Both the position numbers and the translations under genes were made by a program. A stretch of 64,000 nt of DNA, taken from the NCBI RefSeq assembly GCF_000026545.1, contig NC_011601.1. One strand, given 5' to 3'. The notes beneath the pieces were generated by a model. The model did not search any database. It was not told the origin of the DNA and saw nothing but the letters and a program-made list of their open reading frames with translations. Of the stretch, positions 15,186-15,203 are shown piece after piece; position 1 is the first letter of the stretch; each line of letters begins with the position of its first letter. This DNA is from Escherichia coli O127:H6 str. E2348/69 (GTDB lineage Bacteria > Pseudomonadota > Gammaproteobacteria > Enterobacterales > Enterobacteriaceae).

Positions 15186-15203
15186 TGTGTGAATAACGGT
15201 ACA
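15186..15203. promoter_or_regulatory. TGT-N12-ACA dyad, candidate Ogr-dependent late promoter element for the FI operon
   Basis: TGTGTGAATAACGGTACA lies ~80-95 bp upstream of the FI start codon. Confidence 0.4.

Follow-up and report, generated by a model that had tools for sequence, protein, structure and literature searches.

A putative Ogr/B-type activator site at the late promoter of the tail-sheath operon in a P2/186-like prophage of Escherichia coli E2348/69

The tail operon of a P2/186-like prophage in Escherichia coli O127:H6 str. E2348/69 begins behind a 142-bp gap, which runs from the stop codon of a DNA invertase gene at 15137 to the ATG of the tail sheath gene FI at 15280, and the question raised by this locus is whether a small dyad in the gap is the activator site of a late promoter or a short pattern that happens to stand there. 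Coordinates are those of the window, i.e. the whole stretch of 64,000 nt of contig NC_011601.1 (assembly GCF_000026545.1) that was analysed. Read directly from the + strand, the 18-base TGT-N12-ACA motif TGTGTGAATAACGGTACA occupies 15186-15203, with its centre at 15194.5, and one further pair of bases extends the putative Ogr/B-type activator dyad to TTGT-N12-ACAA, with 4-bp arms, at 15185-15204. The motif lies 77-94 nt 5' of the FI ATG and its centre 85.5 nt 5' of it, so that the place given in a first-pass annotation of this DNA, about 80-95 bp upstream of the sheath gene and between the invertase and FI, was accurate. FI itself (15280-16452, + strand; Pfam Phage_sheath_1 and Phage_sheath_1C) is "phage tail sheath protein" in the PGAP annotation of E2348/69, and is the first gene of the late operon directly 3' of the dyad, followed by FII, E, T, U and D. 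The PGAP annotation was taken from the E2348/69 record, which matches the window at 100% over 13217-14497 and 6217-17000. Neither that annotation nor the record of phage Cartapus has a promoter feature at the FI locus.

Taken by itself, the pattern says little. The window contains 11 copies of the bare TGT-N12-ACA, where dinucleotide-preserving shuffles give 15.1 +/- 4.4, and most of the 11 matches are inside genes or in non-phage sequence. The warning of chance occurrence that had been attached to the motif was thus justified, and since the bare pattern is not enriched in the window we gave its frequency no evidential weight. These counts are what would be expected of a functionless pattern, specified by six bases, that has landed in the gap. 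Against this stands the position of the motif: arithmetic from the shuffle counts gives only ~0.03 matches expected per 142-bp gap, and the same motif is found at the same position in all of the related loci that we compared. Four of the 11 matches are at late-promoter positions, namely 3854 and 3912 in the gap between P and O, 13262 before V, and 15186 before FI.

The comparison drew on 80 viral-contig loci from IMG/VR whose sheath proteins are 90-99% identical to that of the window, and in 80 out of 80 a TGT-N12-ACA begins 87-94 nt before the FI ATG. Removal of duplicates left 64 distinct promoter regions. The spacers are diverse, with 44 distinct versions that differ on average at 5.9 of the 12 positions (a tally that includes P2 and 186). 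When the 64 regions were stacked ungapped and anchored on the motif, only 11 of the 147 columns were invariant: T(-1), the TGT, the ACA, G(+31), A(+53), A(+56) and T(+57). Averaged over all pairs, identity reaches 1.00 in the TGT and ACA, 0.54 in the spacer and 0.34-0.38 over the 60 nt upstream; the stretch that separates the dyad from the -10 block scores 0.50, and the block from +53 to +60 scores 0.87. Part of the invariance must reflect shared descent, because the 64 sequences are related; nevertheless, the flanks have diverged down to 34-38% identity, which excludes near-identical copies as the explanation. Judged from the alignment, this pattern is a phylogenetic footprint, and it is the decisive evidence beyond chance. 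With TGT and ACA invariant amid diverging spacers and flanks, and with a fixed spacing to the -10 hexamer that is shared with 186 and P2, an origin of the dyad by chance is highly improbable. For this clade, a working consensus can be written as T-TGT-N12-ACA, with G at +31 and an nA..AT hexamer at +52 to +57, which might serve in searches for late promoters among P2/186-like prophages, satellites and tailocin clusters.

Two known relatives of this promoter have curated features in their RefSeq records and can be compared with it. In phage 186 (NC_001317), pJ has an annotated B-protein site at 14091-14110, a promoter at 14122-14159 with the start at 14159 (+66), and the J ATG at 14183. Like the promoter in the window, pJ stands 5' of a sheath homologue, J, and its dyad begins 90 nt before the ATG, as compared to 94 in the window; in both, the -35 position is offset by +29 from the dyad start and the -10 hexamer occupies +52 to +57. 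They differ in the right arm, which is CCA in 186 and ACA in the window, the 186 dyad being TGTGCCAGACATCATCCA (TGT-N12-CCA), and in what lies just upstream: the terminator t45 after a tail-fibre assembly gene in 186, the invertase gene in the window. Outside the conserved positions, no nucleotide similarity was detectable between the 186 promoter and that of the window. In P2 (NC_001895), pF has an annotated Ogr/Delta activator site at 17555-17583, a start at 17626-17628 (+65 to +67) and the FI ATG at 17652. The operon behind it is likewise FI FII E E' T U D, with ogr downstream, the dyad is of the same type, and the core promoter is weak, with GAAAAT at -10; the dyad centre is 83 nt before the ATG instead of 85.5. 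Here too the right arm is CCA (the P2 dyad is TGTGCTGTCGATTAGCCA, TGT-N12-CCA), the dyad and the -10 hexamer are one base further apart than in the window, and the neighbour 5' of pF is fun(Z), on the opposite strand, where the window has the invertase. Comparison with the P2 FI promoter had been proposed as a check in the first-pass annotation, and it places an equivalent dyad under the annotated pF site, with the -10 spacing one base off. Since both pF and pJ read TGT-N12-CCA, the consensus is loose and tolerates an imperfect ACA.

Similar dyads have been described more widely. According to PMC3931495, the P2 late promoters PP, PO, PV and PF have TGT-N12-ACA in common and are Ogr-dependent; the same pattern is given there for the predicted late promoters of Smp131, while those predicted for phiRSY1/phiRSA1 read TGTTGT-N13-ACAACA (PMC5694545). 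These more distant P2-like phages follow the same logic as the prophage studied here, i.e. one dyad per late operon and an Ogr homologue, but their sites are predictions from other host groups, and the arm length and spacing of phiRSY1 differ from those of the window. The closest annotated relative of the prophage, Cartapus, has an early region of the 186 type, with a CI-type repressor, CII, a Cox/Apl-like and a Tum/DinI-like gene.

If the dyad is an activator site, a poor core promoter should follow it at a set distance, and this is what the sequence downstream resembles. At the -35 position stands a poor hexamer, CTGTTT (15215-15220, + strand), of which only G15217 (column +31) is invariant; it begins at +29 from the dyad, an offset at which the annotated 186 pJ promoter (14122) also begins. 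The weak -10 hexamer, CAACAT (15238-15243, + strand), has the invariant bases A15239, A15242 and T15243 as its positions 2, 5 and 6. It lies 52 nt past the motif start, a spacing equal to that of 186 pJ and one base off that of P2 pF. Of 47 distinct regions, 44 have the first base of the conserved -10 block at +53, as does 186, and P2 has it at +54; it was from this block start that the hexamer was assigned to offsets 52-57. Aligned in this way, the hexamers read CAACAT in the window, GAACAT or TACCAT in the relatives, GACAAT in 186 and GAAAAT in P2. A scan of the + strand over 14300-15500 returned no sigma-70 promoter-like site, which fits a promoter that is unable to fire without its activator. 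Transferring the annotated starts of 186 pJ and P2 pF puts the predicted transcription start at 15250-15253 on the + strand, and the dyad centre at about -55.5 to -58.5, the same range as is obtained from the annotated starts of P2 pF and 186 pJ themselves. The predicted leader would be ~28 nt long and would include the FI Shine-Dalgarno sequence AGGAGG (15265-15270, + strand), 9 nt before the ATG at 15280.

A symmetric site some 55 bp upstream of a poor promoter could also belong to the host. Class I CRP promoters have a symmetric upstream site at which a small activator contacts the C-terminal domain of the alpha subunit and so offsets a poor core promoter; CRP sites are usually at -61.5 or -41.5. 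An overlapping 16-mer in the window, TGTGAATAACGGTACA (15188-15203), resembles TGTGA-N6-TCACA, with 8 of 10 core positions matched (seven of the scored loci reach 9 of 10), so that the promoter might be under catabolite control instead of, or besides, the phage activator. A TGT...ACA dyad that begins TGTGT, however, scores at least 6 of 10 automatically, and the left half-site TGTGA is found, among the listed sequences, in the window's lineage only, most other lineages having TGTGCCATT. What is conserved is the N12 spacing and not the N10 of CRP half-sites, and the N10 centre, 15195.5, would be near -55 to -57 of the predicted start, off the usual positions. CRP also belongs to a different protein family from the Ogr/B activators, and the CRP-specific bases of the window dyad are not conserved in the relatives. 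Because the distinguishing bases are not kept and N12 is, we rejected a CRP site as the main reading; the slight probability that we allow to CRP falls mostly to a role in addition to the phage activator and less to a replacement of it.

The gap also has some capacity to fold, and a hairpin acting on the invertase transcript, as a terminator or a stabiliser, would need no protein site at all. The 142-nt gap folds at -36.7 kcal/mol (z = -2.45), better than shuffles of it, and a local stem, ACCGUCAUUU/GAAUAACGGU, overlaps the left half of the dyad. Yet no T-run follows the stem, a scan found no terminator-like site on the + strand, the upstream arm is not shared with other lineages, which still keep the dyad, and the TGT and ACA arms alone would make 3-4 bp around a 12-nt loop. 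An intrinsic terminator of the upstream gene, defined as a G+C-rich stem with a T-run, was rejected for this stretch, and a hairpin in place of a protein site is very hard to credit. As a separate observation, an imperfect palindrome restricted to the window's lineage, ACCGTCATT...AATAACGGT (15173-15199), overlaps the left part of the dyad, and its upstream copy, ATACCGT, is similar to the extended half-site TGTACCGT.

Further downstream, an inverted repeat, AGGGCGAA(G)CC...GG(T)TTCGCC, spans 15244-15279 (-13.7 kcal/mol, z = -2.9) and covers the predicted start, the Shine-Dalgarno sequence and the bases just 5' of the FI ATG. Several other lineages have different pairing arms in the leader: AGGCAG/CTGCCT, GGGTGAA/TTCATTC and AAGGCAT/ATGCCTT. 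Single-sequence z-scores for the leader fold were -2.9 in the window, -2.4 in the related loci L004 and L055 and -2.3 in L060, and near 0 in P2 and 186; the fold is not significant in many lineages, P2 and 186 among them. For 29 distinct leaders, RNAalifold gave no consensus structure. With no consensus and a significant z-score in some lineages only, the leader hairpin was rejected as a conserved RNA structure. It can be imagined that the fairly good CRP-like core of this lineage, TGTGA-N6-GTACA, and this inverted repeat together form a second layer of control on the FI promoter, which we consider unlikely. Were it so, only read-through transcripts from upstream would hold both arms of the repeat and could mask the FI ribosome-binding site, while transcripts from the late promoter, which would not include the 5' arm, would stay open, and the output of tail genes would be set by host physiology or by the origin of the transcript in addition to the phage activator.

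The upstream neighbour of the dyad is a DNA invertase of the Hin/Gin family (14571-15137, + strand; Pfam Resolvase and HTH_7), which is not part of the promoter but sets its left boundary. As the dyad is directly 3' of this gene, it might have been a site of the invertase system, either a crossover or a recombinational enhancer. The real crossovers are at 9731-9756 and 14490-14515, with half-sites of the TTCTC..AAACC type that are unlike the dyad, and the dyad is equally conserved in 56 loci that have no invertase homologue 5' of FI. Since these invertase-free relatives keep the dyad, we rejected a relation to the invertase, to which we assign next to no probability.

The presence of the invertase at this place is itself variable. 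An invertase homologue is found 5' of FI in 27 of 83 loci, i.e. the 80 relatives together with P2, Cartapus and 186; Cartapus and 25 other related loci have the gene in the same place as the window. The nearest annotated phage, Escherichia phage Cartapus (Peduoviridae, Elveevirus), is among them, with 97.7% identity over 14498-15700 and the invertase in the same place. In relatives with other genes upstream, homology to the window starts at 15154 (e.g. loci L026 and L034-L042), 15177 (L033) or 15185 (L058, L060 and L082), from which it follows that the dyad is at the left edge of the conserved tail-operon (F) module. This sets the boundary of the module one base before the dyad, and the DNA further left is, by this comparison, interchangeable cargo. 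The earlier proposal that the invertase and an orphan gene were inserted upstream of the promoter is therefore borne out for the invertase, by its patchy occurrence and by the edge of homology at the dyad, but not for the orphan, which was carried there by an inversion of about 4.8 kb.

This inversion is seen by comparison with a 99.9%-identical unrearranged prophage in E. coli NCTC11121, in which the order is S, the orphan on the opposite strand, V W J I H, an invertible Hc/tfa cassette, the invertase and FI. Relative to NCTC11121, a 4772-bp segment of the window, 9738-14509, is inverted (a difference first noticed against Cartapus), and the 1958-bp invertible tail-fibre (Hc/tfa) cassette is absent. 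The inverted block holds orphan-pV-V-W-J-I-H(N-terminal part), and its orientation differs from that in all of the 60-odd relatives that contain the region. The junctions, TTATGCTAAACG-TA-GGTATGTGAGAA at 9731-9756 and TTCCAAGTAACC-TA-CGTTTATGAAAA at 14490-14515, have in common an 11-bp perfect inverted repeat, TAAACGTAGGT, and each is a hybrid invertase crossover site whose TA core is palindromic; one of the partners in the inversion, the secondary site TTATGCTAAACGTAGGTTACTTGGAA, is intact inside the 3' end of S in NCTC11121. As a result of these changes, S has no C-terminus (it is a pseudogene in PGAP), H is cut to 353 codons, and no tail-fibre assembly genes are left, and with S and H truncated the prophage of E2348/69 looks defective. 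The F promoter was untouched. Phase-variable segments have been reported in the P2-like prophages of E2348/69, at 1.6-2.0 kb (PMC4272514, Table S1), and the short repeat given for them in that paper is absent from the window; because of the difference in size and the absent repeat, the 4.8-kb inversion is not among the loci reported there. The tape-measure gene T, for its part, is intact in the window, with 1025 codons at 17461-20538, and is frameshifted according to PGAP in the CP059840.2 assembly of E2348/69, so that either the assemblies differ by one base or the annotation is in error.

The orphan ORF is AT-rich, occupies 13272-14453 (the PGAP start is 13308) and would encode 381-393 aa. 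In NCTC11121 the orphan, encoded on the opposite strand, separates S from V, just where P2 has orf30; since it was the inversion that brought it beside the invertase, it is an accessory gene of the S/V gap and not an insertion. None of the 83 loci compared has the orphan upstream of FI, and of 5426 complete E. coli genomes, 20 have the stretch that holds it. The orphan had no DNA match in the phage collection, no PADLOC match and no Pfam match above cut-off; its only full-length match is to phrog_28299, which has no function assigned there.

A late promoter of this kind should have a cognate activator and sister sites, and the window has candidates for both. Downstream of D, a gene at 22205-22423 (+ strand) encodes a 72-aa late activator of the Ogr/B/Delta family (Pfam Ogr_Delta, E = 6.7e-22; phrog_603, transcription regulation) with an intact CX2CX22CX4C zinc finger, and is identical to P2 Ogr at 37 of 72 residues, to 186 B at 39 of 72 and to the Cartapus homologue at 45 of 72. 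Before V, a dyad, TGTGCCAAAAATCATACA, stands at 13262-13279 and, owing to the inversion of the V-W-J-I-H' block in the window, reads on the - strand (V ATG 13216). On the strand of V it is followed by a -10-like CTATAG at +53 and by the ATG at +63, and this spacing predicts a start at or adjoining the V ATG, just as the annotated start of P2 pV is the first base of V. Between the divergent genes P and O there are two dyads, TGTGTGGTTGTCGGTACA at 3912-3929 and a second copy at 3854-3871, whereas P2 and 186 have one annotated activator site for both divergent promoters. As that single site serves P and O alike, the activator site must work in both orientations.

A weight matrix was also applied to these sites. 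It was trained on 33 FI-promoter dyads from lineages whose spacers are unlike that of the window at 5 or more positions, and both strands of the window were scanned. The FI dyad at 15186 ranked 2nd of ~128,000 positions, with a score of 15.0 against a background mean of -38 (sd 10.8). The sister dyads came out at rank 3 (13262), ranks 5 and 6 (3912) and rank 8 (3854), so that all of them are within the top 8 matches, as expected of a regulon. The spacer of the window's lineage fits the other lineages better on the opposite strand, which shows agreement with a symmetric site but also that the extended consensus is weak; two-way function fits the better score of the FI site on the opposite strand.

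Taking these lines together, we are confident that the element at 15185-15204 is real and functionally constrained, an unannotated copy of a well-known kind of site in a P2/186-like prophage, and it is very probably the upstream activator site of the FI-FII-E-E'-T-U-D late promoter, the counterpart of P2 pF and 186 pJ. That this operon keeps a late promoter of its own, as had been suggested in the first-pass annotation, is well supported by a dyad that is invariant in 64 relatives amid diverging surroundings, by a -10 spacing as in 186 pJ and P2 pF, and by the presence of a cognate Ogr/B gene. From the same comparisons we infer activator binding, activator dependence and the start site, all three of which are putative. 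The result annotates a regulatory element that is unmarked in the public records of this prophage lineage, and leaves existing knowledge of P2-type late gene control unchanged.

How the site would work can be carried over from the established work on P2, 186 and P4. P2-type activation is known for the contact between the activator and the alpha subunit of RNA polymerase, and for the effect of rpoA109 (alpha L290H). After induction, the Ogr/B homologue would bind the TGT-N12-ACA, centred ~55-58 bp 5' of the start, and touch the C-terminal domain of the alpha subunit, and would thereby recruit sigma-70 polymerase to a core, CTGTTT at -35 and CAACAT at -10, that is too weak alone. Transcription would then begin near 15250-15253 and proceed through the sheath, tube and remaining tail genes, and the same activator, acting at the dyads of O/P (3912) and V (13262), would switch on the head, lysis and tail genes together. 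In the present host, the FI promoter may be out of use, the prophage being rearranged and probably defective.

Two further features of these dyads deserve mention. The centres of the two P/O dyads (3854-3871 and 3912-3929) are 58 bp apart, the ATG annotated for the terminase gene P (3865) falls within the 3854 dyad, and the 3912 dyad would place the start of the P promoter right at that same ATG. Either the mRNA of gene P has no leader or a very short one, or translation of P really begins at the next ATG (~3814). The match that ranked first with the weight matrix is CGTTGCGTCATTCTCGCTACAACT (21919-21936), which has TGC instead of TGT and lies inside gene D, ~285 nt 5' of the ogr homologue; it could be a chance match, or a weak activator site that feeds back on ogr.
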